12,950 nt of DNA from assembly GCF_025370715.1 (NCBI RefSeq), contig NZ_JAMXEY010000002.1, one strand, 5' to 3'. Source of the stretch: Laspinema olomoucense D3d. Its GTDB lineage: Bacteria > Cyanobacteriota > Cyanobacteriia > Cyanobacteriales > Laspinemataceae. Below, one piece after another: positions 1-12,950 of the stretch. The notes beneath the pieces were generated by a model. The model saw nothing but the letters and a program-made list of their open reading frames with translations, had not been told where the DNA came from and made no database searches. Each line of letters begins with the position of its first letter. Positions within the stretch are counted from its first letter, which is position 1. The position numbers and the translations under genes are program-made.

Positions 1-1590
1 AACCACCCGTTGCCCATCGCCGCTGATGGCTACGGCACGTACCCAGTCACTATGCCCGGTGAGAGTGCGTTCCTCCTCCCCTGTGGCCAGATTCCACACT
101 TTCAGGGTCTTATCGTCTGAACCGGAAACCACCCGTTGCCCATCGCCGCTGATGGCTACGGCACGTACCCAGTCACTATGCCCGGTGAGAGTGCGTTCCT
201 CCTTCCCGGTGGCCAGATTCCACACTTTCAGGGTCTTATCCCCTGAACCGGAAACCACCCGTTGCCCATCGCCGCTGATGGCTACGGCACGTACCCAGCT
301 ACTATGCCCGGTGAGAGTGCGTTCCTCCTTCCCGGTGGCCAGATTCCACACTTTCAGGGTCTTATCCCCTGAACCGGAAACCACCCGTTGCCCATCGCCG
401 CTGATGGCTACGGCACGTACCCAGCTACTATGCCCGGTGAGAGGGCGTTCCTCCTTCCCGGTGGCCAGATTCCATACTTTCAGGGTGTTATCGTCTGAAC
501 CGGAAACCACCCGTTGCCCATCGCGGCTAATGGCTACGGCACGTACCCAGCTACTATGCCCGGGGAGAGTGCGTTCCTCCTCCCCGGTGGCCAGATTCCA
601 CACTTTCAGGGTGTTATCGTCTGAACCGGAAACCACCTGTTGCCCATCGCGGCTGATGGCTACGGCAGTTACCGAGTTACTATGCCCGGTGAGAGTGCGT
701 TCCTCCTCCCCGGTGGCCAGATTCCATACTTTCAGGGTGTTATCGTCTGAACCGGAAACCACCCGTTGCCCATCGCGGCTGATGGCCACGGCATTTACCG
801 TGCCACTATGCCCGGTGAGAGCGCGTTCCTCCTCCCCGGTGGCCAGATTCCAAACCTTTAGGGTGTTATCATAAGAACCGGAAACCACCCGTTGCCCATC
901 GCGGCTGATGGCCACGGCACGTACCATATCACTATGCCCGGTGAGAGTGCGTTCCTCCTCCCCGGTGGACAGATTCCAAACCTTTAGGGTGTTATCATAA
1001 GAACCGGAAACCGCCCGTTGCCCATCGCGGCTGATGGCCACGGCACTTACCCAGTCACTATGCCCGGTGAGGGTGCGTTCCTCCTCCCCCGTGGCCAGAT
1101 TCCACACTTTCAGGGTGTTATCCTCTGAACCAGAAACCACCCGTTGCCCATCGGGGCTGATGGCCACGGCAGTTACCGAGCTACTATGCCCGGTGAGAGT
1201 GCGTTCCTCCTCCCCCGTGGCCAGATTCCACACTTTCAGGGTGTTATCCTCTGAACCAGAAACCACCCGTTGCCCATCGGGGCTGATGGCCACGGCAGTT
1301 ACCGAGCTACTATGCCCGGTGAGAGTGCGTTCCTCCTCCCCGGTGGCCAGATTCCACACTTTCAGGGTGTTATCCTCTGAACCAGAAACCACCCGTTGCC
1401 CATCGGGGCTGATGGCCACGGCAGTTACCGAGTTACCATGCCCGGTGAGGGTGCGTTCCTCCTCCCCTGTCGCCAAATTCCACACCTTCAGGGTTTTATC
1501 CAATGAACCGGAAACCACCCGTTGCCCATCCCGGCTGATGGCGACGGCATTTACCGAGTTACCATGCCCGGTGAGAGTGCGGATTAAGGG
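1..1590 (-). repeat. Tandem array of 13 near-identical 126-bp units, each encoding one 42-aa WD40 blade; the array continues beyond the window
   Basis: The motif aaccacccgttgcccatcgc recurs at 1, 127, 253, 379, 505, 631, 757, 883, 1009, 1135, 1261, 1387 and 1513, an exact 126-bp period. Units are roughly 90% or more identical at the DNA level by eye. Differences concentrate in a few codons. Confidence 0.9.
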
Positions 1591-3981
1591 ACCGCCGGGG
1601 GCTGTCAAGTTAGGGAAGAGGGGACGAATCCAGGGTTTTCTTTGACATTGTTGCGCCTGGGTCAGCAGTTGGATGATGGCGGGGAACGTCTCCCTTTGGG
1701 GAGTCTCCTCCGCATACTTGGGTAAATGCTGACCAATGCCCGGAATCCGCTCCCAGAAATAGCGATAGGGAGGTTTAGGGGGGGTCATCTCCCCAAAAGA
1801 CAACAACCGCCCCCAGAGTTGCCCCGCCAGTTGGCTGGTATCCTGCTGCACCACATGGGCGGACAAGCGCACCGCCTCCCCCACTAGCTCCAGGGTCCGA
1901 CTTGCCACCGCCTCTGGAACTGCCTCAAAATCCGCCAACACCGCCCCCACCCCCAGGCGCTCTATCTTCCCCTGCAACCAGGGAAAATCCAGTAACAGGG
2001 GTGGGATGTGGTGTGGGCAAACTTGGAGATGGTGACGAATGGCGTAGCGAGCAAAATACTCATCCGCCGTCGCCTCGTGATAGCCTTCGGGATAGCGTTG
2101 ACCATAAGCGGCGAAAAACTGCTCCTGACGCGCCGTCAAATCCCCCGCCTGTTGGCGCACATAATCCACCTGCAAATCGTGCAGACTCAGCCGATCTAAC
2201 TCATCCCGCAACAGCAACGACTTCGCCACCAAATCATTCACCACATCGGACACCGCCGAGGCATCCAGCCCGATCGCCCCCCAGAAAATTTCCAGCACCC
2301 CCTCGGGAATCGGCCTATCCTCCGGGAAAATCGCCAAATCCAGATACCGAGTCGCCATATCTGACGGCAACGCATCCACACTCACTTGCAGCACTTTCAG
2401 TAAATTGGGATGGGGATAATTCGGGAACTCGTAGGCAATCCGAGCTAAATCTGGCGATCGCAATTTTTCCAGCACATTCCGCCAACGGTTTGCCCCGTTC
2501 CCACGGACCATTGCCCCGGCGATCGCCACTGCCAAAGGCAAATAGCCACATTCCCGCACCACCTCCACCGCCTCCGGTGGCAATCCTTCCCGGTGTTCCC
2601 CCGCCCACTGCGCCACCAACCCTAACCCCTGCTCCTCGGACAACACCCCCACCTCATGACCTTGGGCCGCCAACCCCGTCACTAACCTCCCATCCCGGGT
2701 CGTCACCAACAATTGACACCGTGGCCCCAACCCGTCAAACGCCGCCGCGTGGGACATCTGCCAAACATCATCCAACACCAACAAACAAGCGCGCCCCTCC
2801 AACTGTTGCGCCAGTGCCGCTTTCCCCTGGGGCACATCCTCAAAATAGATGCGCTCCCCGGTGAAATAGGCCACACAGTCCACCAATCGCGCTTTCACGT
2901 TCGGTTTTTGCCCCAAGGTCACCCACAGCACCCCATCGGGAAACCGTTCTCCCACCGCTTCATCCCGCGCCACCGCCGCCGCCAGCACCGACTTCCCAAT
3001 GCCCCCCATCCCCTGCACGCCCACCCGCTGCGCCACCCCCGTCATCACCAAAGTTTGGGACTCGGTTCCCAGCAGCTTGGTTTTAATCGCCTCAACTTCT
3101 TCTGAGCGGGGCAAAAACTTCAGAGGCAAGGACGGCACATTAAACAACTGGGAACGGAGTGCAGCGGTTGCCCCTTCCCCCCCTGCCAGTCGGTCCATCT
3201 TGCCTTCCATGCGCTCTCCCTGTCGCATCAGACGCAAGAAATTCTCGTCTAAGCTACTCAGCACCCGCTCCACATCTTCCCGCTGCGCCAACTTCGGCAA
3301 ATACTGCTGAATTTCCTGAAGCTGCGCCAAAGTTGCCCCATGCAAATCCAACACCATCCCCCCAAACGCTTTCGGGTCATCCTTCAACACCTGCCGCAAA
3401 TACTGGCCAAAATTCGCCGCCAACTCCCCCGCCAACGCCGCCACCACATCCTGATACTCGGCAGCTTCCGCAGGCAAAATCCCCCGCCCATAGCCCCAAT
3501 CCACCAAATCCTCACTTAACTCCTGCCACTCGTCCGCCGTCAAAACCGGGTAGTTGCTGAACCCTCCGGGTGCTTGGCTAAACAGGTGATAAAGCTGCTC
3601 CTCCTGCAAGGTTTCAAACACATTAATGCCCTGCACCCGCTCCAACCAATAGACTTCCACCCCATCCGCCAACCCCTGCAATCCAGCGCGCAAATCCAGG
3701 AACTGGGGGATGATGCGCTCCTCTAAGGTTTTCCCCACCGTCCGTCCCGCCGCCTTCGCTAAATCCTCATTCCGCAACACCTCCCCATGATTGCGAAACC
3801 GATCGAGCAACGCCTCGATCTCATTTGCCCCCAAGCTGCTGATAATCCCACTCGTCACAGTCCATACCGCTTCTGTCCCAGGACTCCCCGCCTTTGCTAG
3901 AGTCCACACAGCCCCCAACCCCAGTAGCGCCGTTTTACCCAATAGGCTTCGATTCACCTTGAGCCACCGATTCGCATCCAT
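1..3981 (-). CDS. STAND/NLR-like NTPase: unknown N-terminal domain, then NB-ARC (AP-ATPase), then a WD40 repeat array. The C-terminus is partial: the gene continues beyond the window start, in-window part 1,327 codons
   Basis: Minus-strand frame is open from the ATG at 3979-3981 (GGAGG 10 nt upstream) to position 1 with no stop. Walker A QGMGGIGKS is encoded around 2990-3013, Walker B ACLLVLDDVW at 2761-2790, and an LLVTTRD sensor motif follows. The linker PWIRPLFPNLTAPGGPLIRTLTGH then leads into 13 WD40 units of consensus SGSxDxTLKVWNLATGEEERTLTGHSxxVxAVAISxDGQRVV. The plus-strand ORFs in the track (26..874, 1034..1645, 1902..2864) are antisense artefacts of this gene. Confidence 0.85.
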   Translation of the reverse strand, partial: MDANRWLKVNRSLLGKTALLGLGAVWTLAKAGSPGTEAVWTVTSGIISSLGANEIEALLDRFRNHGEVLRNEDLAKAAGRTVGKTLEERIIPQFLDLRAGLQGLADGVEVYWLERVQGINVFETLQEEQLYHLFSQAPGGFSNYPVLTADEWQELSEDLVDWGYGRGILPAEAAEYQDVVAALAGELAANFGQYLRQVLKDDPKAFGGMVLDLHGATLAQLQEIQQYLPKLAQREDVERVLSSLDENFLRLMRQGERMEGKMDRLAGGEGATAALRSQLFNVPSLPLKFLPRSEEVEAIKTKLLGTESQTLVMTGVAQRVGVQGMGGIGKSVLAAAVARDEAVGERFPDGVLWVTLGQKPNVKARLVDCVAYFTGERIYFEDVPQGKAALAQQLEGRACLLVLDDVWQMSHAAAFDGLGPRCQLLVTTRDGRLVTGLAAQGHEVGVLSEEQGLGLVAQWAGEHREGLPPEAVEVVRECGYLPLAVAIAGAMVRGNGANRWRNVLEKLRSPDLARIAYEFPNYPHPNLLKVLQVSVDALPSDMATRYLDLAIFPEDRPIPEGVLEIFWGAIGLDASAVSDVVNDLVAKSLLLRDELDRLSLHDLQVDYVRQQAGDLTARQEQFFAAYGQRYPEGYHEATADEYFARYAIRHHLQVCPHHIPPLLLDFPWLQGKIERLGVGAVLADFEAVPEAVASRTLELVGEAVRLSAHVVQQDTSQLAGQLWGRLLSFGEMTPPKPPYRYFWERIPGIGQHLPKYAEETPQRETFPAIIQLLTQAQQCQRKPWIRPLFPNLTAPGGPLIRTLTGHGNSVNAVAISRDGQRVVSGSLDKTLKVWNLATGEEERTLTGHGNSVTAVAISPDGQRVVSGSEDNTLKVWNLATGEEERTLTGHSSSVTAVAISPDGQRVVSGSEDNTLKVWNLATGEEERTLTGHSSSVTAVAISPDGQRVVSGSEDNTLKVWNLATGEEERTLTGHSDWVSAVAISRDGQRAVSGSYDNTLKVWNLSTGEEERTLTGHSDMVRAVAISRDGQRVVSGSYDNTLKVWNLATGEEERALTGHSGTVNAVAISRDGQRVVSGSDDNTLKVWNLATGEEERTLTGHSNSVTAVAISRDGQQVVSGSDDNTLKVWNLATGEEERTLPGHSSWVRAVAISRDGQRVVSGSDDNTLKVWNLATGKEERPLTGHSSWVRAVAISGDGQRVVSGSGDKTLKVWNLATGKEERTLTGHSSWVRAVAISGDGQRVVSGSGDKTLKVWNLATGKEERTLTGHSDWVRAVAISGDGQRVVSGSDDKTLKVWNLATGEEERTLTGHSDWVRAVAISGDGQRVV

Positions 3982-4151
3982 CCTCTGTACCTCCACCACT
4001 GCACCTATTTTACTGAAGGTTCATCACCTTGGACACGATTTGTCAGCAAAAAGTGGGTACGAACAGCGCTATCCGGATTCATGAATTTCACCGCAACGGA
4101 CGGGAGCCATTAGAATAGAAACGTGAATCTGACTTAACCGGAGTGTGTGAC
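3982..4151. promoter_or_regulatory. Divergent intergenic region shared by the STAND gene (minus) and the small-protein/protease cassette (plus); presumed divergent promoters
   Basis: This 170-bp non-coding gap lies between two start codons facing away from each other. GGAGG is present 10 nt upstream of the minus-strand ATG and GGAG 8 nt upstream of the plus-strand ATG at 4152. No -35/-10 pair could be pinned down confidently. Confidence 0.35.
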
Positions 4152-4367
4152 ATGGTGCCATCGGAATTAATCTCAACCTTGAGAGCGCTGAGTCGTTCAG
4201 ATCAGTTCTATATCATGCAGATTCTGCTCTCAGAATTAGCCCAGCAGGAACCTACTCTGATTCAGTCTGAGCAATCTTATCCAGTGTGGTCGCCTTATGG
4301 TGCGGATGAGGCAGCAGATACAATGTTAAAAGTGCTACAGGAGTCTAAATCTCAAGATGATGGGTAA
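4152..4367 (+). CDS. Small acidic hypothetical protein, 71 aa, D/E-rich; partner of the downstream protease
   Basis: ATG at 4152 with GGAG at 4140-4143 (8-nt spacer). The ORF track starts at the GTG at 4143, and ATG 4152 is the more likely start. The frame stays open through an AT-richer stretch. Its stop TAA at 4365-4367 overlaps the next ORF's ATGATG start at 4357. No recognisable family. Confidence 0.5.
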   Translation: MVPSELISTLRALSRSDQFYIMQILLSELAQQEPTLIQSEQSYPVWSPYGADEAADTMLKVLQESKSQDDG

Positions 4368-4788
4368 TCCTGAACGATATCCATTTTTATCGGGTAATCC
4401 GGCATTAGGTGAAGCTAGTTTTTGTCCGTATCTGCCTTTGACCTTGTTTTACCAGGAGAGTTCACTCAAAACCTCCGGGCTGTTAGATACTGGGGCAAGT
4501 GTAAATGTGCTGCCATATTTGACAGGCATTGAGCTGGGATACGAATGGGAGAGACAAACAACTGCTCTGAGCCTGACTGGTAATTTAGCTCAGTATGAGG
4601 CGCGTGTTGTACTTGCTCAAGGGATCATTGGTCAGTTTGAGCCTGTGCAACTGGTATTTGCCTGGACACAAGCTACAAACGTACCGCTCATTCTGGGGCA
4701 GGTAAACTTTTTTATGGAGTTCGATGTCTGTTTCTATCGTTCCCAGTTAGAGTTTGCAGTCAGCCCTAAAACTCCTTCCTCCGAGTAG
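4357..4788 (+). CDS. Retropepsin-like (clan AA) single-domain aspartyl protease, 143 aa
   Basis: Catalytic motif LLDTGASVNVLP (Asp at aa 44, nt 4486-4488) follows a hydrophobic hairpin region. The C-terminal hh-G-x-hh motif LILGQVNFF matches the ILGRD/IIGRN dimer-interface motif of retropepsins and Ddi1. Its size fits a homodimerising half-pepsin. The start overlaps the upstream stop by 11 nt (ATGATGGGTAA), indicating translational coupling. Confidence 0.6.
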   Translation: MMGNPERYPFLSGNPALGEASFCPYLPLTLFYQESSLKTSGLLDTGASVNVLPYLTGIELGYEWERQTTALSLTGNLAQYEARVVLAQGIIGQFEPVQLVFAWTQATNVPLILGQVNFFMEFDVCFYRSQLEFAVSPKTPSSE

Positions 4789-4895
4789 GTTGAATGTTAG
4801 GTTGTTTAATCGTTGCCATAATCTTTGCCGGAACGATTCGATCTATTCGCTGATATCATGGGTAAATTATGTTCTGACCTTCTGAGCAAGCAACC

Positions 4896-6482
4896 GTGAC
4901 TCCTAGCTCTAAACCCTTTGATTCTGTCACTCCCCCGTCTGAAGAAGAACTCACCGATATCGTGGTGATCGGGAGTGGAATTGGTGGATTGTGCTGTGCT
5001 GCTTTATTGGCACAGTATGGGTTCGCGGTGACGGTTTGTGAGAGTCATAGCATTGCAGGGGGTGCAGCGCATGGGTTTTCTCGGAATGGATATACGTTTG
5101 ATTCGGGTCCGTCGTTGCATTCTGGGTTGTCTGACCCTCACTCGGCTCACCCACTTAAACAGGTGTTGGATGCCATTGGTGAAACAGTCCCTTGTGTGAC
5201 TTATGATACTTGGGGTTGTTATCTTCCGGAAGGGGAATTGAATATTGCCGTGGGTGCAGACCCGTTTTGTGAGGTACTGCAACAGTTGCGAGGCAGGGGT
5301 GCGGTGCAGGAATGGCGGAAGTTGCAACAAGTTATGGAACCGTTAGCGGCAGCAGCGAAGGCGATTCCTCCCACTGCGTTGCGCTGGGATTGGGGGGCTG
5401 CGATCGCCACAGCACGGTTTGCACCAGCGGTTTTGCCTCACTTGGGAAACATCGTTAAACTTACCGGGCCCTTTAGTCGAGTCATGGATGAGGTGATTCA
5501 GGACCCGTTTATCCGCAACTGGTTGGATTTGCTCTGTTTTCTGCTCTCTGGACTGCCTGCCTCGGGGACTAGCGCCGCAGAAATGGCCTTTATGTTTGCG
5601 GAATGGTATCGACCCGGGGTCGTGCTAGAGTACCCCATTGGCGGCAGTGGCGCGATCGCAGAGGCATTGGTGCGGGGACTCGAAAAACAGGGGGGACGGT
5701 TGCGGTTGAATGCTCATGTTGAACAAGTGCTGGTAAAAGGCGACTGCGCGGTAGGCGTGCGTCTGCGGGGAGGGACGGTGATTCACGCCCGTCAAGCGGT
5801 GGTATCCAATGCGTCGGTGTGGGATACGTTGAAATTACTACCCCAGGATGCAGTTCCGAAATCGTTTCGCAGTCGCCGTCAAGCCACTCCCGCTTGTGAG
5901 AGTTTCATGCACCTGCACCTCGGCATCGATGCTGCTGGATTACCGGCTGATTTAGCCTGTCATTATATCATTGTTAACGACTGGAGTCAAGGGATTACAG
6001 CCCCGCAAAATGTCGTTTTAGTCTCCATTCCCTCGGTGTTAGACCCGTCCCTCGCCCCACCGGGAAAGCACGCGATTCATGTTTATACACCTGGGAACGA
6101 ACCCTATCATTTATGGGCGGGACTTGAGCGCAATAGTGCGGCATATCAAGACTTGAAGCAAGAACGGGCGCAGGTAATGTGGCAAGGATTAGAACGCATT
6201 ATTCCGGATATTCGGCAGCGATGTGAGGTGACTTTGGTGGGAACACCTCTGACTCATGAGCGATTTTTACGCCGCGATCGCGGTTCTTATGGTCCTGCGA
6301 TTGCGGCAGGAAGCGGCTTTTTTCCGGGTCCAACCACTCCCTTATCGGGGTTATTCTGCTGTGGGGATTCCACTTTTCCCGGAATCGGTTTACCTGCCGT
6401 TGCCGCCAGTGGGGCGATCGCCGCTAATACGATCGCCCCCTTGCACAAGCATCTCGCCCTACTTAAGGCGATCGGTTTTTAA
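4896..6482 (+). CDS. CrtI-superfamily FAD/NAD(P)-binding oxidoreductase (phytoene desaturase / carotenoid isomerase-ketolase related; COG1233-like)
   Basis: N-terminal Rossmann dinucleotide-binding motif DIVVIGSGIGGLCCAALLA...E...GG. C-terminal blocks IPSVLDPSLAPPGKH, GSYGP and CCGDSTFPGIGLPAVAASG are typical of CrtI/CrtH/CrtO-type enzymes. The start is a GTG at 4896, with no in-frame ATG before the Rossmann motif. The exact enzyme cannot be assigned. Confidence 0.75.
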   Translation: MTPSSKPFDSVTPPSEEELTDIVVIGSGIGGLCCAALLAQYGFAVTVCESHSIAGGAAHGFSRNGYTFDSGPSLHSGLSDPHSAHPLKQVLDAIGETVPCVTYDTWGCYLPEGELNIAVGADPFCEVLQQLRGRGAVQEWRKLQQVMEPLAAAAKAIPPTALRWDWGAAIATARFAPAVLPHLGNIVKLTGPFSRVMDEVIQDPFIRNWLDLLCFLLSGLPASGTSAAEMAFMFAEWYRPGVVLEYPIGGSGAIAEALVRGLEKQGGRLRLNAHVEQVLVKGDCAVGVRLRGGTVIHARQAVVSNASVWDTLKLLPQDAVPKSFRSRRQATPACESFMHLHLGIDAAGLPADLACHYIIVNDWSQGITAPQNVVLVSIPSVLDPSLAPPGKHAIHVYTPGNEPYHLWAGLERNSAAYQDLKQERAQVMWQGLERIIPDIRQRCEVTLVGTPLTHERFLRRDRGSYGPAIAAGSGFFPGPTTPLSGLFCCGDSTFPGIGLPAVAASGAIAANTIAPLHKHLALLKAIGF

Positions 6483-6507
6483 AACTCCACAAACCCTATT
6501 ATGCAAT

Positions 6508-6541
6508 GTTCATAGTCACAACTTCAGTCGTTACTATGAAC
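6508..6541. terminator. Perfect 9-bp inverted repeat (GTTCATAGT-16 nt-ACTATGAAC) between convergent genes; possible bidirectional terminator or protein-binding palindrome
   Basis: The left arm 6508-6516 is the exact reverse complement of the right arm 6533-6541. The right arm overlaps the TAG stop (6534-6536) of the minus-strand GST gene. There is no clear U-tract on either side, so intrinsic-terminator status is weak. Confidence 0.3.
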
Positions 6542-7505
6542 TAAGAGAATGGCTTAAAACCTCGCGATGGTGGGGCTCCTGTAAGTTGGTGATAGTTGGT
6601 CCTAATGGAATAATTCCACCGGGATTTAAGGGGAAAAGATTACCGTAATAGTCTCGTTTAATACTATCAAGATTACAAGTGTCTGCTACTCCCGGGAGTT
6701 GATAGATATCCCTGAGATAGGGTCCGAGGTTTTGATAGTCCTGGATGCGGCGTTTATTGCATTTAAAGAGTCCGTGATAAACAATATCAAAACGAAATAA
6801 TGTGGTAAATAGCCGCACATCAGCTAGAGTTAATTGGTCGCCGCATAAGTATCGATTAGTCGCCAAAACTGCATCTATTTCATCTAAGGTATTAAACAGT
6901 TCCGTGCAGGCGGTGTTGTATGCGGTTTGACTTTGAGCAAATCCACAGCGATAGACGCCGTTGTTAATAGCAGGGTAAATTTTATCGTTCCAGTATTCTA
7001 TTTTGTCTTGCAACTTTTCGGGATATAAATTGAGTTCTGGATGAGGGCTAAATTCATTAAATTCTGAATTTAGCATGATGATAATTTCCGCACTTTCATT
7101 GTTAACAATGGTCTGGGTTTGGGTATCAAATAGGACCGGAACGGTGCAGCGTCCTTGATATCCGGGACGGGCGATCGCATACAGTTCCGGGAGGGTTTGA
7201 CAGCCGTATTCGGGTTCATCCAGGACCCAGATTCCGGCATCGGGAGAGGGGGAGACAATGGCAACGGAAATGGCCGATTCTAATCCTTTGAGCGATCGCA
7301 CCACCAGGGTCCGATGCGCCCAAGGGCAACCCAATCCCACATACAGGCGATACCGTTCCTTAGCTGGGGGATAGGGGTTTTCGGGTTGGGTTCCGACGGA
7401 ATTTCTAAACTCGCTGATGGGACGAATGTATTCTCCAGTTTGATTACGCGGGGCGAGTTTGGACATCATCAGTTGCCATAGGCTCGTCCAGACAAATTTG
7501 CCCAT
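6534..7505 (-). CDS. yqjG: Xi-class glutathione S-transferase / glutathionyl-hydroquinone reductase (YqjG/ECM4 family)
   Basis: Hallmark Cys-Pro-Trp-Ala active-site motif in RYRLYVGLGCPWAHRTLV. Blocks VPVLFDTQTQTIVNNESAEII, NNGVYRCGFAQSQTAY, LTLADVRLFTTLFRFD, LRDIYQLPG and GIIPLGP align closely with what I recall of E. coli YqjG. The start is chosen at the ATG (7503-7505) giving MGKFVW..., which aligns with the YqjG N-terminus. In-frame alternatives lie upstream at 7586 (MSLETPS...) and 7652. Confidence 0.8.
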   Translation of the reverse strand: MGKFVWTSLWQLMMSKLAPRNQTGEYIRPISEFRNSVGTQPENPYPPAKERYRLYVGLGCPWAHRTLVVRSLKGLESAISVAIVSPSPDAGIWVLDEPEYGCQTLPELYAIARPGYQGRCTVPVLFDTQTQTIVNNESAEIIIMLNSEFNEFSPHPELNLYPEKLQDKIEYWNDKIYPAINNGVYRCGFAQSQTAYNTACTELFNTLDEIDAVLATNRYLCGDQLTLADVRLFTTLFRFDIVYHGLFKCNKRRIQDYQNLGPYLRDIYQLPGVADTCNLDSIKRDYYGNLFPLNPGGIIPLGPTITNLQEPHHREVLSHSLSS

Positions 7506-7671
7506 TTTAATAATAACTTTTGAGGGCAGTTTTTTCCCTTTTTTCGGGGGAGTATTGGTTTGGTTGGAAGGAGTTTCTAAAGACATAATCAATGGGGTGA
7601 AGGGGATAAACTCATAAAAAATATTTCTCGTCTTACAAGTTGAGTAATGCACAGGCGAGGGCCTGGTTATT

Positions 7672-8178
7672 TTAGTCGGGTAATTGTTCTTTCAAAGAAG
7701 AAATAATCTGAGCATCTAGTTTGAGTTTGACCTCGATTAAGCGGGTGGTATCCCGGAAAATTAAAATTTGATTGTCTTCTACAAAAATTTCTGGTTCTTG
7801 CAAAGTCAAGGTTTGATATTTCAAGGCAGCGAGTCCGATCTGCATGACGAGGGTGGGTTGGGATTGGGGATAAATGTAGAGTTGCTGCCGTTTGGGGTCG
7901 AGTTGCAGTTGTCTGACGGTGGTATTGCGTTCGTCTGGCATTCCGGGTTTTGACCAATAGAGGGTAATGCCGCGTATATCGGGGTTGGCGATCGCAAAGG
8001 TTTCGTCAAAGCGTTGGGGTTCCCAATCCAATTCTCGAACATCGCCGTTTCCCGGAAGGATACGCTGGCGCAAGATGATCTCTTTGCCGTTGAGGTTGCG
8101 CCACCATTGCCGGATTGTCTCGAAATTTTCAACCATCTCGGGATTGCTATTCCCAGAGTGCCAGGTGATGAATTGCAC
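7672..8178 (-). CDS. Hypothetical protein (about 168 aa), family not recognised
   Basis: The minus-strand frame is open for 176 codons. The start is chosen at the GTG (8176-8178) preceded by a near-perfect SD AGGAGG with a 6-nt spacer. The ORF track's start at 8202 is a TTG and the first ATG lies 23 codons further in. No motifs recognised. It is transcribed divergently from the HDAC-family gene. Confidence 0.5.
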   Translation of the reverse strand: MQFITWHSGNSNPEMVENFETIRQWWRNLNGKEIILRQRILPGNGDVRELDWEPQRFDETFAIANPDIRGITLYWSKPGMPDERNTTVRQLQLDPKRQQLYIYPQSQPTLVMQIGLAALKYQTLTLQEPEIFVEDNQILIFRDTTRLIEVKLKLDAQIISSLKEQLPD

Positions 8179-8274
8179 GATCGCCCTCCTGATTACTATC
8201 AATAATTCCCATTTTAGAGTTTAAATTAGATTTTAAAGGTGACTGTACCTCGGCAACGCTAAACCTTCCCTGAC

Positions 8275-9192
8275 ATGGACTTACCCATCGTTTATCATCC
8301 TGACTATGTGGCCCCTCTGCCTCCGTCCCATCGTTTCCCGATGGAAAAGTTTCGGTTACTCTATGAAATGCTTTTAGGCGATCGCGTTGTCACTCCCGAA
8401 CAGTGTCACACGCCAGAATTGCCACCCCAGGACTGGATTGAATCCGTCCATGACCCCCAATATGTCCAGGCATATTGCCAAGGCACTCTCGACCCCAAAG
8501 CACAGCGCAGGATTGGTTTACCCTGGACTGAGGCGATCGCCCATCGCACTTGTATCTCCATTGGTGGGGCAGTTTTGACCGCTAAACTGGCATTAAAACA
8601 CGGATTAGCTTGCAACACCGCCGGGGGAACGCATCATGCCTTTCCCGATTTTGGATCAGGGTTTTGCATTTTCAATGATTTGGCGATCGCCTCCAGGATG
8701 ATCCAAAAATTGGCCGGGATTCGCAAAGTCTTAATTGTTGATTTGGACGTCCATCAAGGGGATGGGACAGCCTTTATTTTTAAAAATGACCCGGATGTTT
8801 TTACCTTTTCTCTACACTGTGAGGCCAATTTTCCCGGGCGAAAACAAACCAGTGATTTAGATGTTCCTTTACCCGTAGGAATGGAGGATGATGAATACTT
8901 GCAAACCGTCGCTGGTTATTTACCGGATTTACTCGGACAATTCCAACCGGATTTAGTCTTGTATGACGCAGGAGTGGATGTTCATGCAGGCGATCGCCTG
9001 GGTAAATTAGCCCTGAGTGATACCGGGATTTTTCGGCGAGATATGCAGGTGTTAAGCACCTGTCTCGCCGCTAGATATCCCGTTGCCTGTGTCATTGGGG
9101 GCGGATATTGCGAGGATATGCGCGGTTTGGTGTATCGCCATTCTCTCTTACATCGTGCTGCAGCTCAAGTGTATCGTCAGTATCGACTTTAG
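8275..9192 (+). CDS. Histone deacetylase-superfamily amidohydrolase (AcuC / acetylpolyamine aminohydrolase-like)
   Basis: N-terminal PIVYHPDY is followed by the class-defining GGTHHAFPDFGSGFCIFNDLAIA block, the metal-binding LIVDLDVHQGDGT block and a C-terminal GGGY motif. ATG at 8275. Confidence 0.85.
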   Translation: MDLPIVYHPDYVAPLPPSHRFPMEKFRLLYEMLLGDRVVTPEQCHTPELPPQDWIESVHDPQYVQAYCQGTLDPKAQRRIGLPWTEAIAHRTCISIGGAVLTAKLALKHGLACNTAGGTHHAFPDFGSGFCIFNDLAIASRMIQKLAGIRKVLIVDLDVHQGDGTAFIFKNDPDVFTFSLHCEANFPGRKQTSDLDVPLPVGMEDDEYLQTVAGYLPDLLGQFQPDLVLYDAGVDVHAGDRLGKLALSDTGIFRRDMQVLSTCLAARYPVACVIGGGYCEDMRGLVYRHSLLHRAAAQVYRQYRL

Positions 9193-9275
9193 TGGTAACA
9201 ACCGCTGGGGATTAAAACCTCCAGCTAATAGCTTAAGGCAACAACCGCCAATCGATTTATCCCCCGCCTGGTTTG

Positions 9276-10844
9276 CTACTCCCGTTCCAAAATTCTGACC
9301 ATTCCTTTGGCACTGCCACTGATGAGAAGTTGTCCATTTGGACTGTAAACTAAGGACATCACGGCCCCACTTTCTTCCGTTAACGTGCAGAGTAATTTAC
9401 CTGTGGGTAAATGCCAGATTTTGACCGTCCCATCGGCGCTGCCTGTGGCAAAGCTGTTCCCATCTGGGGCGAGGGCGACTGCGGTTACGGGTCCTAAATG
9501 GGCACTCAGACTCCACAGCAGTTCACCCGTTTCCAAATTCCAGAGTTGAATACTGCCGTCGCCACTGCCGCCGATGAGGAGTTGTTGGGGAGAGATGACG
9601 ATCGCTTCTACTGCCTCTAAACTGCCATTGAGGACCGAAATCGGCTGTTTGGTTTGGAACTGCCACAGGGTAATCGTACCGTCCCCACCGCCTCGGGCGA
9701 GAATTTGACCATCGGGGGAAATAGCGAGGGAAAAGATGGGTCCGGTATAGTCCGTGAGGGTATCAATTAATTCAGCAGTGGACAAATCCCACAATTTAAT
9801 CGTCTCGTCAAAACTGCCACTGACGAGGGTTTTGCCATCAGGGGCGATCGCCAAGGCGCGGACGGAACCCCCATGTCCCGTGAGGGTTTCTTTGGGAATT
9901 CCTGTGGGGAGTTCCCAGAGTTTGATGGTTTTATCCCAACTGGCAGAGGCGAGGGTTTTGCCATCGGGGGCGATCGCAATGGCAAATACCCCCCGTTTGT
10001 GTTCGGCAAGGACTTGCAACAGTTCGCCCGTAGTCAGGTTCCACAGTTTAATACTGGTATCAAAACTGCCCGTTGCTAGAATTTGTCCATCAGGGGTAAT
10101 CCCCAGCGATCGCACCCAGTCCGCATGGGCGGGCAAACTGTGGCGACAGCTCCAATTCTGGGCCGTGGGTTCTGAGGGGGCCGCAAATGACGGCAGGACG
10201 ACTTTCGACGCGGGCGGTTTGGATTTGGCGGGTTGAGAAGGGGTTGCGGATGTGGGGGGTTCCGGCGTTGCCAGTTCCGGTTGAGGGCGAGGAGAGGGCG
10301 ACGGGACCACGATTTGCGAGGTTAATTGGGAAATTGCCTCCTCCACTCGTTCTAAGCGGTAGGCAAAGGATGAACGATTCAGATAGGCGATCGCATTGCC
10401 CAGACTTTCATCCAACAAGGCATATTGCTCTTTCAACCCCGCGATTTCCCCCTGAATCTGGGACAAATCCACCGATTCTAATTTCCCCAATCGGGTTTTA
10501 AGCAGAGCCAATTCATCCGGGGACCCCGTAGCCACAGGGGGGCGGCTGCCTTCCTCTACTTCCACTTGAGGGAGGGGAAGTTGCTTCTGGGCTTCCACCC
10601 GTTGGGTGAGCATTTCCAGTTCTTCCGCCAATTGGCGATGCTGTCGATTCGTTGTTCCACTGACTCGGCGAGTTTGGTGTTCCAGGCGATACCGGGCGAT
10701 CGCATTCAAAATCAGGGTACTGCAAATCAAAGGGGCGGCTACATAGATAGCCCCATTAAAAAAAACCGCCACTATCGACGCCACCAATGACGCGAACAAG
10801 GAAGCATATTCTGCGGTTTCTAGCCAATGACGGTGATTTGACAT
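9276..10844 (-). CDS. Membrane-anchored coiled-coil / Pro-rich-linker / 7x WD40 repeat protein
   Basis: Start taken at ATG 10842-10844 (MSNHRHW...) with GGAAGGA 6 nt upstream; the ORF track's 10862 is a GTG. The N-terminus has two hydrophobic helices (LFASLVASIVAVFF, VAAPLICSTLILNAI), then a heptad-like QLAEELEMLTQRVEAQ region, then a P/S/T-rich linker (PSPSPRPQPELATPEPPTSATPSQP). Seven diverged WD40 units follow, such as DTSIKLWNLTTGE, DKTIKLWELPTG, DETIKLWDL and DGTVKIWHLPTG. Confidence 0.8.
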   Translation of the reverse strand: MSNHRHWLETAEYASLFASLVASIVAVFFNGAIYVAAPLICSTLILNAIARYRLEHQTRRVSGTTNRQHRQLAEELEMLTQRVEAQKQLPLPQVEVEEGSRPPVATGSPDELALLKTRLGKLESVDLSQIQGEIAGLKEQYALLDESLGNAIAYLNRSSFAYRLERVEEAISQLTSQIVVPSPSPRPQPELATPEPPTSATPSQPAKSKPPASKVVLPSFAAPSEPTAQNWSCRHSLPAHADWVRSLGITPDGQILATGSFDTSIKLWNLTTGELLQVLAEHKRGVFAIAIAPDGKTLASASWDKTIKLWELPTGIPKETLTGHGGSVRALAIAPDGKTLVSGSFDETIKLWDLSTAELIDTLTDYTGPIFSLAISPDGQILARGGGDGTITLWQFQTKQPISVLNGSLEAVEAIVISPQQLLIGGSGDGSIQLWNLETGELLWSLSAHLGPVTAVALAPDGNSFATGSADGTVKIWHLPTGKLLCTLTEESGAVMSLVYSPNGQLLISGSAKGMVRILERE

Positions 10845-10900
10845 AGAGTCCTTCCCACCCACCGGAGCCTATATTACAAGTGCCATTTTATCAAAAATCC
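10845..10900 (-). promoter_or_regulatory. Putative promoter region of the membrane WD40 gene
   Basis: Read on the minus strand: TTGATA...(12 nt)...TTGTAATAT, with a TAATAT -10-like hexamer (plus-strand 10871-10876) about 27 nt upstream of the ATG. The spacing to the -35-like TTGATA is suboptimal, so this is tentative. Confidence 0.2.
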
Positions 10901-11138
10901 CCCTAATCTTTCCATTTTATGGAGAAATGTTGATATAAGGGGGATACAAATTTTTCACTCAAACCCGGCACAATTGAGCCTAAATTGCCCAAAATTTTGT
11001 TTTGAGACTAATAATGATTCCTCTAGTTTCAACCCTGAGCGTTCGAGCCTTAAAAATAGGGTAAACAATGAACAAAGAGTTTAATCAATCATTTTTTTGT
11101 TTTGCCCCTCGTTATTGACTCAAGCGGCTGTTATCCAG

Positions 11139-11168
11139 AAAAATCCCCACCCGGAAAGCAGTGGGTGA
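11139..11168 (-). terminator. Candidate intrinsic terminator downstream of mgtE
   Basis: Read on the minus strand: CCCAC-tgctttccgg-GTGGG followed by ATTTTT, lying 7-35 nt after the TAA stop (11175-11177). The stem is only 5 bp, all GC, so confidence is moderate to low. Confidence 0.35.
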
Positions 11169-11174
11169 GGAAGA

Positions 11175-12575
11175 TTACAATCCTAGAAATAGCTTGGCAA
11201 TATTAAAGTAAATCAGAACACCCAAAACATCTACAGCCGTGGTAATAAATGGTGCTGACATCAGGGCGGGATCTAACTTAATGGCGCGGAATAAAAATGG
11301 CAGGGCTGAACCGGATACCGATGCCAAAATTGAAATCGCAATCAGAGAGATGCCGACACAGAAAGCCACCTGGAGATTGACTCGCAACAGGAAAAAAGCC
11401 CAGATGGTGGCAAGAGTTCCCAAAATTGTCCCTAGTAATGCACCGGCAATTCCTTCTCGCCAGATAACTTTGAGCGGTCCGAGTAAGCGAATTTCATCGG
11501 TATTCATCCCGCGAATCACCACAGTAGAAGACTGGGCACCGACATTCCCTCCCGTACCCGTCAGCAGGGGAATAAAGGCGGTGAGGACGACGACTTGCTG
11601 CAATAGCTCTTTTTGGGAATTAATAATTGATCCGGTTACGGTATTGGTGAGCAATAAGACGAACAGCCACACGACACGGCGTCGCGCCACTGTCCATAAA
11701 TTCATTTCAAAATAATTATCCCCATCGGTTTGGACCCCACCCAAGGCATAAATATCCTCGGTGGTTTCCTGTTCCATGATGTCGATCGCATCATCGATGG
11801 TGATGACCCCGACTAAGCGTTGCTCGCGATCGACCACGGGGATCGCTAGGAAATCATAGCGCTGAATCAGGCGCGAGACTTCCTCACCGTCGGTATCTGT
11901 ATGGACGAATACCACATCCCGAGTCATGATTTCACTAATTTTTTCCTCGGGGGAACTAATCACCAAGTCCCGCAGGGAAACGATTCCGGTTAACCGGCGT
12001 TCGCTATCCATGACATAGAGGTAATAAATAATTTCCGCCACTGGCGACAGGGTGCGAATCCGTTCCAGGGTTTGGCTGACGCTCATATTTTCCCGGACGG
12101 AAATATATTCCGGGGTCATGATTCTCCCGGCAGTTCCCGATTCATAGCCCATTAGCAGGGCGGTGGACTGCCATTCCGTGGGAGACAGTTGTGCCCGCAA
12201 TCGGCGCACGACTTTCGAGGGCAATTCATCCAGCAGTCGGGCGCGATCGTCCGGGGACATATTGCCAATGATATCTAGGACGTCCTGGCGCTTGAAGTCT
12301 TCTAAAAGCACCTGTTGGACGCTGGTATCGAGATGTTCATAAACTTCCGTTGCTTCCTGTTTGGATAGCAAGCGAAAGGCGATCGCCTGCATCGCTTCAG
12401 GCATTCCTTCGATCGCTTCGGCGATATCCACAGGTTGAACCGGGACTAAAATCGCTTTAGCCCCCTGGAGGTCCCCCTGTCTGAGCAGGGCTTCCAGTTG
12501 CGATCGCACTAAGTCAGGTATTTCTCTCCGCGACAGGGTCCCGAGGGGAGAGGATATCGGTTGAGGTTCAGTCAC
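11175..12575 (-). CDS. mgtE: Magnesium transporter MgtE (N-terminal MgtE-N domain, tandem CBS domains, C-terminal 5-TM MgtE pore domain)
   Basis: 466 aa. The GTG start at 12573-12575 is preceded by AGGGAG with a 6-nt spacer. The CBS-like regions are ...YISVRENMSVSQTLERIR... and ...RDVVFVHTDTDGEEVSRLIQRYDFLAIPVVD... The C-terminal TM block carries the conserved ...GNVGAQSSTVVIRG... and ...APFITTAVDVLGVLIYF... signatures of MgtE. Confidence 0.9.
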   Translation of the reverse strand: MTEPQPISSPLGTLSRREIPDLVRSQLEALLRQGDLQGAKAILVPVQPVDIAEAIEGMPEAMQAIAFRLLSKQEATEVYEHLDTSVQQVLLEDFKRQDVLDIIGNMSPDDRARLLDELPSKVVRRLRAQLSPTEWQSTALLMGYESGTAGRIMTPEYISVRENMSVSQTLERIRTLSPVAEIIYYLYVMDSERRLTGIVSLRDLVISSPEEKISEIMTRDVVFVHTDTDGEEVSRLIQRYDFLAIPVVDREQRLVGVITIDDAIDIMEQETTEDIYALGGVQTDGDNYFEMNLWTVARRRVVWLFVLLLTNTVTGSIINSQKELLQQVVVLTAFIPLLTGTGGNVGAQSSTVVIRGMNTDEIRLLGPLKVIWREGIAGALLGTILGTLATIWAFFLLRVNLQVAFCVGISLIAISILASVSGSALPFLFRAIKLDPALMSAPFITTAVDVLGVLIYFNIAKLFLGL

Positions 12576-12606
12576 GTTAAACTCCCTGGATCCAGTCCGA
12601 TCCCTA

Positions 12607-12643
12607 TTCTATACAATTTAAGGGGACGCGAACTCGTCACCCC
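12607..12643 (-). terminator. GC-rich imperfect hairpin plus U-rich tail between the two mgtE paralogues (terminator of the upstream paralogue and/or leader element of mgtE)
   Basis: Plus-strand GGGGACG-cgaact-CGTCaCCCC at 12622-12643. On the minus strand it is followed by CTTAAATTGTATAG. It sits in the 115-nt gap between the paralogue's stop (12691) and the mgtE start (12575). The structure is imperfect: an internal mismatch interrupts the stem. Confidence 0.25.
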
Positions 12644-12690
12644 AGGCGAAACAGGGCGAGTCGAACGGGACCTCTCCAGTGGGTTCCCAG

Positions 12691-12950
12691 TCACTCCGCA
12701 CCTCCCAAAAGCTGCTGTGCCACCGTTAAATAAATTAACACCCCCAGGACATCCACTGCTGTGGTAATAAAGGGCGCTGACATTAAGGTTGGCTCAAATC
12801 CTAGGCGATCAAATAAAAACGGGAGGGCTGACCCGGCGAAGGAGGCGAGGATAGTAATCGCCAGCAAACTCACTCCCACGGAAATAGCAACCAGGAGATT
12901 TCCCGCTAGGAAATAGGCCCAAATGGTGACAATAAGCGACAGCATGATTC
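12691..12950 (-). CDS. mgtE: Second MgtE-family magnesium transporter, C-terminal transmembrane part only (N-terminus beyond the window end)
   Basis: Translation ...ISVGVSLLAITILASFAGSALPFLFDRLGFEPTLMSAPFITTAVDVLGVLIYLTV... is clearly paralogous to the C-terminus of the complete mgtE at 11175..12575 (..ISLIAISILASVSGSALPFLFRAIKLDPALMSAPFITTAVDVLGVLIYFNI..). The frame stays open to the window edge. The Met at 12945 is probably internal. Confidence 0.75.
   Translation of the reverse strand, partial: IMLSLIVTIWAYFLAGNLLVAISVGVSLLAITILASFAGSALPFLFDRLGFEPTLMSAPFITTAVDVLGVLIYLTVAQQLLGGAE

Follow-up and report, generated by a model that had tools for sequence, protein, structure and literature searches.

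The closest described relatives of the gene treated here are the recently amplified WD40 propellers carried by cyanobacterial STAND NTPases, one of which has been solved (2YMU) and for which a role in innate immunity has been proposed (PMC9218822). The gene itself, an Apaf-1-like STAND NTPase gene ending in a highly repetitive WD40 array, occupies positions 1–3981 of a 12,950-nucleotide stretch of DNA from Laspinema olomoucense (the window, meaning the whole stretch that was analysed). Cyanobacterial propellers of this type are covered by the WRAP literature (Chaudhuri 2008, Dunin-Horkawicz 2014, Afanasieva 2019, Pereira & Lupas 2022). In Npun_R6612 from Nostoc punctiforme, the protein of structure 2YMU, the blades are separated by just 10 point mutations and by no synonymous differences, which pointed to very recent amplification, and beta-propellers are generally modelled as arising by amplification and subsequent differentiation (PMC9218822). 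Highly-Repetitive WD40 proteins were found to be enriched in Cyanobacteria, diverse at the predicted interaction hotspots and conserved at the remaining sites, and the high internal identity often met in prokaryotic WD40 proteins was read as young repeat duplication (Hu et al. 2017, Sci Rep 7:10585, PMC5587647). Among fungi, the NWD repeats of Podospora show strong positive selection at codons 7, 9, 25 and 27, flanking the conserved codons 8 and 26 (Paoletti 2007, PMC1805685), and 126-bp high-identity WD40 repeats are omitted or created by short-read assemblies of the same genus (PMC12222747). Bacterial and fungal NLRs were reported by Dyrka et al. to share WD and TPR repeats of 80–90% internal identity, and it was raised, merely as a possibility, that the bacterial ones 'might similarly' diversify rapidly. 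A survey described orthologues of Apaf-1 in bacteria that have WD40 sensors and of which the closest occur in cyanobacteria (Nature 2026, PMC13581612), and diversity-generating retroelements were shown to diversify putative conflict-system sensors in multicellular bacteria (PMC10907252). Highly repetitive WD40 sensors with variable hotspot residues on cyanobacterial STAND NTPases have already been published, and the present locus is no new kind of system. The first-pass annotation of this DNA had matched the array to the fungal HET-E genes, a precedence that passes to the cyanobacterial propellers on STAND proteins (2YMU; PMC9218822; PMC5587647). The addition made here is modest: the hypervariable codons of HET-E and HET-D recur in a bacterial Apaf-1-like protein, together with an excess of amino-acid-changing over synonymous differences and with homogenisation within the array, which supports the suggestion of Dyrka et al. 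that bacterial NLR-like repeats may diversify as fungal NLR repeats do.

The preferred reading, to which a probability of about 0.72 is given, is that positions 1–3981 on the minus strand encode an Apaf-1-like STAND NTPase of L. olomoucense composed of an all-alpha domain, an NB-ARC domain, a winged helix, a linker and a repetitive, diversified WD40 sensor. The array is coded on the minus strand, within one open frame of 1327 codons, which starts with the ATG at 3981 and is still open at position 1, where it leaves the window on the left. The parts of the gene are the following.

1..3981, minus strand: Apaf-1-like STAND/NLR-type gene; its start (ATG at 3981) is complete, and its 3' end is lost at the window edge after 1327 codons

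3112..3981, minus strand: all-alpha N-terminal domain of about 290 residues, matching no family, in the effector/adaptor position

2374..3057, minus strand: NB-ARC domain, residues 309–536 (Pfam PF00931, E = 5.8e-28)

2161..2361, minus strand: Apaf-1-like winged helix, residues 541–607 (Pfam PF21296, APAF-1-like_WHD, E = 2.2e-09), with an LHD motif at residue 600

1579..2112, minus strand: helical, HD2-like linker between winged helix and propellers, residues 624–801; the alignment to Apaf-1 extends to residue 686

697..1578, minus strand: WD40 units 1–7 (1578–1453, 1452–1327, 1326–1201, 1200–1075, 1074–949, 948–823 and 822–697), predicted to form the first 7-bladed propeller

1..696, minus strand: WD40 units 8–12 (696–571, 570–445, 444–319, 318–193 and 192–67) with the partial unit 13, predicted part of a second propeller whose remainder lies past the window

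66–1, minus strand: partial WD40 unit 13, first 22 codons

The first 797 residues are 100% identical to the NCBI entry 'NB-ARC domain-containing protein, partial [Laspinema olomoucense]', from a filamentous cyanobacterium. That the array belongs to a STAND protein, as had been proposed at first pass, is borne out by the NB-ARC and winged-helix matches, by the alignment of the Apaf-1 chain 1Z6T (PDB) to the NOD (4.2e-40 over residues 270–686) and by the intact NB-ARC motifs, namely Walker A (GMGGIGKS, residue 324), Walker B (LLVLDDVW, residue 400), TTR (residue 427) and GYLPLA, a GxPLA motif (residue 479). A winged helix and a second helical domain stand between NOD and sensor, though the APAF1_C match to the latter was weak and sub-threshold (E = 0.11, residues 624–712). 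NACHT remained below threshold (E = 0.03; 14.6 bits, the cut-off being 26.7), the domain-profile scan gave no match to a HET domain, and no N-terminal effector or adaptor of the CARD or caspase type was found, its place being taken by the unannotated all-alpha domain. The protein shares with Apaf-1 the order of its domains, NB-ARC being followed by winged helix, helical domain and, last, the tandem WD40 propellers, and is unlike it in its all-alpha N-terminal domain and in lacking a CARD or caspase-like domain. The blades of Apaf-1 are divergent and number 7+8.

A single tandem array was detected by Tandem Repeats Finder at window positions 1–1581, with a period of 126, 12.5 copies, 94% matches and a score of 2476, and Pfam WD40 matched the protein at 2.8e-158 over 12 stretches. 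The first-pass annotation had counted 13 near-identical units; the near-identity and the 126-bp period were confirmed, while the count comes down to 12 complete units (1578–67, minus strand) followed by 22 codons of unit 13 (66–1), which is truncated by the window edge. All the peptide variants that it had listed were recovered in the minus-strand translations of the units. Unit-to-unit identity in DNA is 85–100% (mean 90.5%), and in amino acids 86% on average and never below 79%. Units 3 and 4 match at every base, units 10 and 11 are one base apart, a nonsynonymous one, and the differences between units 5 and 6 lie at codons 8, 10, 21 and 36 and at two synonymous sites. Another WD40 gene of the window (9276–10862, minus strand) served as internal control; its blades have a DNA identity of 51% and an amino-acid identity of 39%, so the near-identity of the array is far above that of normal WD40 blades. 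Identity between blades also exceeds the cut-off for highly repetitive propellers, a median of 60% (Pereira & Lupas 2022). The array, described at first pass as unusual for WD40 proteins, is unusual beside this control gene and not among its own relatives, since most of the 65 homologues retrieved have a median blade identity of at least 0.6 and the cyanobacterial ones mostly show 60–90%. The 'highly internally conserved repeat' organisation ascribed to it is present. Two open reading frames on the plus strand, 26–874 (282 residues) and 1034–1645 (203 residues), run antisense to the array; they were treated as by-products of the stop-free repeat frame, no evidence for genes having been found.

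The units were aligned in the register T1-L2-T3-G4-H5 ... E41-R42, 42 residues being equal to 126 bp, and entropy and the ratio of nonsynonymous to synonymous differences per site (pN/pS) were calculated by codon. Across the 12 full units, 32 nucleotide columns vary, in 22 of the 42 codons, and the amino acid varies at 13 codons. Of these columns, 11 are purely synonymous, ten of them third positions and the other a first position of Leu. Synonymous differences occur all along the unit, and pS, at about 0.14 (0.13–0.15), is the same within the variable codons as in the rest. At this pS the array lacks the mark of very recent amplification known from Npun_R6612, an absence or near-absence of synonymous differences, and it is highly repetitive yet not newly amplified. 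Amino-acid variation is concentrated at codons 6, 7, 8, 10, 26 and 28, which hold about 65% of the summed amino-acid entropy. The first-pass statement that the units differ almost only at ligand-surface codons therefore stands in part for amino acids, with some 65% of entropy in six top-face codons, and falls for nucleotides, which vary in 22 of 42 codons; the alignment and codon statistics that it had recommended gave the same divided answer, with amino-acid variation concentrated and synonymous differences scattered.

The codons numbered 7, 9, 25 and 27 by Paoletti correspond to codons 8, 10, 26 and 28 of the present register, where they flank V9 and D27, and these four test codons were fixed beforehand from the Podospora literature and not picked from the window data. 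Their summed entropy ranks 10 of 111,930 four-codon sets in the window array and 3, 20 and 11 of 111,930 in three orthologous arrays, and per-site entropy is correlated between arrays (Spearman 0.49–0.78). The Nei-Gojobori pN/pS was 3.10 at the four codons and 0.29 at the remaining 38, values that come from a pairwise statistic on 12 non-independent units linked by duplication and conversion, and not from a phylogeny-aware or site model. Minimal state counts of nonsynonymous to synonymous changes were 11:1 at the four codons versus 13:16 elsewhere (Fisher p = 0.006). The most recent duplicates, taken as the closest unit pairs, diverge mostly through amino-acid changes at these sites. The trait of HET-E and HET-D by which two codon pairs flanking conserved residues have a ratio of nonsynonymous to synonymous substitution rates (dN/dS) above 1 is found here as well in the pairwise test, with codons 8 and 10 around V9 and 26 and 28 around D27. 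The likeness to fungal genes suggested at first pass is upheld to this extent: the most variable codons include the four that are under positive selection in the fungal NWD family (entropy rank 10 of 111,930, pN/pS 3.10). Purifying selection acts on the structural residues of the blades, and at six residues of the top face in each blade the differences that change the amino acid are in excess.

An AlphaFold2 model of window 682–1614 (units 1–7) was obtained with a pLDDT of 94.3, a pTM of 0.90 and 28 strands, and its top Foldseek matches, each with a probability of 1.00, were the 7-bladed propellers PkwA 5YZV, WRAP-T 7BIE and 2YMU. The strand order of the model divides the 42 codons of a unit as follows.

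Codons 9–14: strand A

Codons 20–25: strand B

Codons 29–34: strand C

Codons 40–42 plus 1–3: strand D, the outer strand

Codons 4–8: D-A loop, top face

Codons 15–19: A-B loop, bottom face

Codons 26–28: B-C turn, top face

Codons 35–39: C-D loop, bottom face

In standard WD40 topology the D-A and B-C loops lie on top and the A-B and C-D loops at the bottom. The faces were assigned from the DSSP strand order of the model, from this topology and from a correspondence with WDR5, and not from model coordinates. The D-A loop contains codons 6–8, the start of strand A codon 10 and the B-C turn codons 26 and 28, all of them on the top face. Codon 16 (IS[G/R/P]DG) falls in the A-B loop and codons 36 and 39 (TG[E/K]EE) in the C-D loop, on the bottom face, and the variable codons 1 and 3 are located in the outer strand D. 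The first-pass annotation had assigned the variable positions to the top ligand-binding face; under the AlphaFold2 model this is right for codons 6–8, 10, 26 and 28, the strongest sites, and wrong for codons 16, 36 and 39. Codons 10 and 26 are presumably equivalent to peptide-pocket residues of WDR5 (F133, F263 and S91; F149 and Y191), the comparison residues, which we take to be S49/S91/F133/S175/S218/F263/I305 and A65/D107/F149/Y191/L321, having been checked for residue identity alone.

The window was compared with four related loci, L001 (GCA_025370725.1) and L002 (GCA_025370815.1), both from L. olomoucense, and the complete orthologues L003 and L004. Units 2–12 have their best match (94–100%) within their own array and reach at most 93% in L001, L003 and L004, whereas the nearest counterpart of unit 1 is the first unit of L004; the mean DNA identity is 90.5% within the window array versus 86% between window units and those of L001. 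Since the interior units are closer to each other than to orthologous units, the sequences indicate that they were homogenised by tandem duplication, unequal recombination or gene conversion, that is, by concerted evolution. Edge units that keep their positional identity beside a homogenised interior are the usual signature of unequal recombination or conversion. In a Laspinema paralogue (P0011) the units are clearly different from those of the window. Divergence was also found between strains: the window gene (1425–4200) is 89–96% identical to L001, whereas most of the flanking DNA (4200–12950) is 99–100% identical, with a second divergent patch at about 5700–7800; by comparison with L002 the gene is 99.6–100% identical and the upstream flank differs. 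This mosaic pattern across three assemblies suggests, at the level of sequence, recombination or long-lived alleles, and a gene divergence of 4–11% amid near-identical flanks is compatible with balancing selection or recombination.

When set beside the described systems, the window protein resembles the WRAP proteins and Npun_R6612 in being a cyanobacterial STAND NTPase whose C-terminal part consists of about 14 near-identical blades in a row, for which two 7-bladed propellers are expected, and 2YMU is both its best PDB sequence match (1.2e-175) and a top fold match. It differs from Npun_R6612 in its pS of about 0.14 and in the variation of the amino acid at 13 of 42 codons, and the Nostoc unit is apparently one residue shorter (a C-D loop gap in each repeat of the HMMER alignment to 2YMU). 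Because of the pS and the concerted pattern, the two arrays are distinct, that of the window being older or continuously homogenised, and diversified. The N-terminal domain differs from that of the WRAP proteins, and no partner TIR-STAND gene was seen in the window. With the Highly-Repetitive WD40 proteins of Hu et al. (2017) it shares high internal identity, many blades, cyanobacterial origin and hotspot diversity, the pattern picked up in the first-pass annotation, although that study is a catalogue, without dN/dS, concerted-evolution or strain-allele analysis of the present family. With the fungal HNWD/NWD proteins HET-E, HET-D and HET-R of Podospora anserina it shares units of 42 residues and 126 bp, concerted evolution, the identical four hypervariable codons flanking a conserved V and D, a predicted double propeller (there for reactive alleles) and trouble with short-read assembly (PMC12222747); unlike them, it is bacterial, its NOD is an NB-ARC and not a NACHT domain, and it has no HET domain. 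A more far-reaching proposal is that the gene is a bacterial counterpart of het-e and het-d, a strain-polymorphic NLR shaped by repeat duplication or conversion and by diversifying selection at 4–6 top-face residues per blade, maintained as a polymorphism in the species, and signalling via an undescribed all-alpha death or effector domain shared with NB-ARC-TPR proteins. The proposal is prompted by the divergence of 4–11% in the gene between two L. olomoucense strains whose flanks differ by 0–1%, and it is regarded as speculative and on the whole improbable.

The pattern of variation could also have arisen without selection for new specificities, in a young amplified propeller that has been drifting since one blade was duplicated repeatedly, its variable sites being simply the least constrained surface. 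The top face is the least conserved surface across ordinary WD40 families, and the bottom-loop codons 16, 36 and 39 vary too, in a sample that is small and made up of non-independent units. Amplification followed by differentiation is moreover the general propeller model (PMC9218822), and high internal identity in prokaryotic WD40 proteins has been interpreted as young duplication (PMC5587647). Relaxed constraint alone gives a pN/pS of at most 1, however, and pN was about three times pS at codons defined in advance, with pS equal (0.13–0.15) inside and outside them; the same codons are hypervariable in four arrays. A pS of about 0.14 further implies that the array is not very young, and yet its interior units are 94–100% identical to a neighbour, so that ongoing homogenisation is required. 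Drift from a young amplification is for these reasons considered quite unlikely as the whole explanation. Targeted mutagenesis of the variable codons, for example by a diversity-generating retroelement, is brought to mind by codons 7 and 10, which vary among AAC/AGC/GAC/GGC and AAT/ACT/AGT/CGT and superficially recall adenine mutagenesis of AAY, and by the known action of such elements on conflict-system sensors in multicellular bacteria (PMC10907252). With any unit taken as template and on either strand, at most 43% of the differences fall at template adenines, where nearly all would be expected, synonymous third-position differences are common, and no reverse transcriptase was found among the genes of the window or of the four related loci. 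Given the lack of adenine bias and of a reverse transcriptase, a diversity-generating retroelement was rejected as highly improbable.

Near-identity, unit order or unit number could, on the other hand, stem partly from short-read repeats that were collapsed or chimerised during assembly. L001 and L002 each contain two 100-N gaps within the array (L001 5801–5900 and 6980–7079; L002 5837–5936 and 7086–7185), and the sequence left of window position 1 was read from the near-identical L002. A scan of the species-representative genomes for an exact 54-nt match to the window gave 0 hits. Window 1–1149 (units 5–13) is 100% identical to the piece of L002 between its two gaps, window 1356–4032 is 99.6% identical to L002, and window position 1 is the exact edge of one L002 gap. 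The other gap is bridged by the least certain stretch.

1150..1355, minus strand: end of unit 2, unit 3 and start of unit 4

The complete identity of units 3 and 4 is what would be expected from the minimal traversal of a collapsed loop, and in Podospora short-read assemblies are known to omit or create such repeats (PMC12222747). Beyond the gap at position 1, L002 has the tail of a unit and then a degenerate final blade, ending in SGSYDNTLKVWNLATGEEIASFTADAALQCCAIAPDGVTVVAGDNGGRVHFLRLEGFP and a stop codon. The complete orthologues L003 (1379 residues) and L004 (1389 residues) are organised alike, with 13 GH-type units and one degenerate terminal blade, 14 blades in all, and the Arthrospira PCC 9108 orthologue (P0015), on a 6.76-Mb contig, has 14 units and one degenerate blade. 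The 14 blades of the complete orthologues presumably form two 7-bladed propellers, by analogy with the Nostoc structure 2YMU, and the 13 units of the window would fit a count of 13+1. Because the 1149 bp of units 5–13 recur without a difference in two assemblies with differing upstream flanks, and because homologues on multi-megabase contigs (Arthrospira PCC 9108, 6.76 Mb, and Nostoc carneum NIES-2107, 8.35 Mb) share near-identical blades and variable positions, the near-identity itself is not an assembly artefact; the concentration of variation at certain sites is, in addition, independent of unit order. An artefact is accordingly a serious possibility, though not a probable one, and it applies to unit number and order and not to the phenomenon. 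The first-pass warning that short-read assemblies may misjudge copy number here is justified by the gaps inside the array in the near-identical public assemblies GCA_025370725.1 and GCA_025370815.1, and the locus marks a spot where public short-read assemblies are gapped or unreliable.

Several observations weigh against an Apaf-1-like STAND NTPase with a diversified WD40 sensor as the preferred reading. The pN/pS values are based on just 12 non-independent units and are not phylogeny-aware; the bottom-loop codon 16 (R/P/G, entropy 1.5) varies about as much as some top-face codons; and part of the pattern is accounted for by the weak constraint on the top face in ordinary WD40 families. Unit order and copy number were taken from an assembly whose sister assemblies have gaps at this place, and are insecure around units 3/4 and to the left of position 1. 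The surrounding genes of the window are of housekeeping type (metabolic and transport), namely amine oxidase, GST-like, deacetylase-like and MgtE genes. When residues 1–797, that is, the NOD and N-terminal part, were searched with PADLOC, 0 families were matched at E ≤ 1. The sole strong PADLOC match of the full protein was HEAT-ARM_XIII (9.7e-68, residues 806–973), which lies entirely over WD40 blades and is for that reason uninformative on membership of a defence system. The recognition of phage or non-self that had been put forward at first pass is left as conjecture, no known defence-system profile of PADLOC matching the part outside the WD40 blades.

By analogy with Apaf-1, plant and fungal NLRs and the bacterial Avs proteins, the role of the array as a sensor, its release from autoinhibition and an immune or cell-death output may be pictured as follows. 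The propellers would hold the NOD inactive, and binding of a protein ligand to the variable face would release it. Nucleotide exchange and oligomerisation could then follow, and the two would activate the N-terminal domain; growth arrest or cell death as the output is a guess. Two Gly/Ala-rich helices of moderate hydrophobicity open the N-terminal domain. When 1.84 billion representative proteins were searched exhaustively with HMMER, the domain was found in just 55 clusters, always in N-terminal position, and among the seven long members that were scanned five have NB-ARC plus TPR downstream, other members having WD40-like repeats. From these sequences, the domain appears to behave as a swappable N-terminal module of NB-ARC proteins and could be a candidate effector or adaptor module; as an unannotated domain of this protein class it could be a new one. 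A scan for promoters and terminators upstream of the gene gave nothing exceeding shuffled expectation.

The remainder of the window includes a second WD40 protein, the internal control described above, and two transporter genes.

9276–10862, minus strand: second WD40 protein of 528 residues, with a hydrophobic segment at the N terminus, a linker of coiled-coil/Pro-rich type and at least 5 recognisable blades of ordinary divergence

11175–12575 and 12691–12945, minus strand: a tandem pair of genes for MgtE-type magnesium transporters, both with CBS domains, of which the second is truncated by the right window edge; in L001 they lie at 16843–19762

Between the NLR-like and the amine oxidase genes (3982–4895), an open reading frame of 143 residues at 4357–4788 gave a weak, sub-threshold match to Asp_protease_2, a retropepsin-like aspartyl protease family. 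An HSDR_N protein and a primase-like protein (D5/DUF5906) are encoded at the related loci. In L002 the spot taken in the window by the 143-residue frame is occupied instead by two toxin-antitoxin pairs (ParE-antitoxin and TacA-acetyltransferase, L002 1381–3210), inserted just upstream of the gene. The HSDR_N, primase-like and toxin-antitoxin genes at these loci weakly hint at a variable region.

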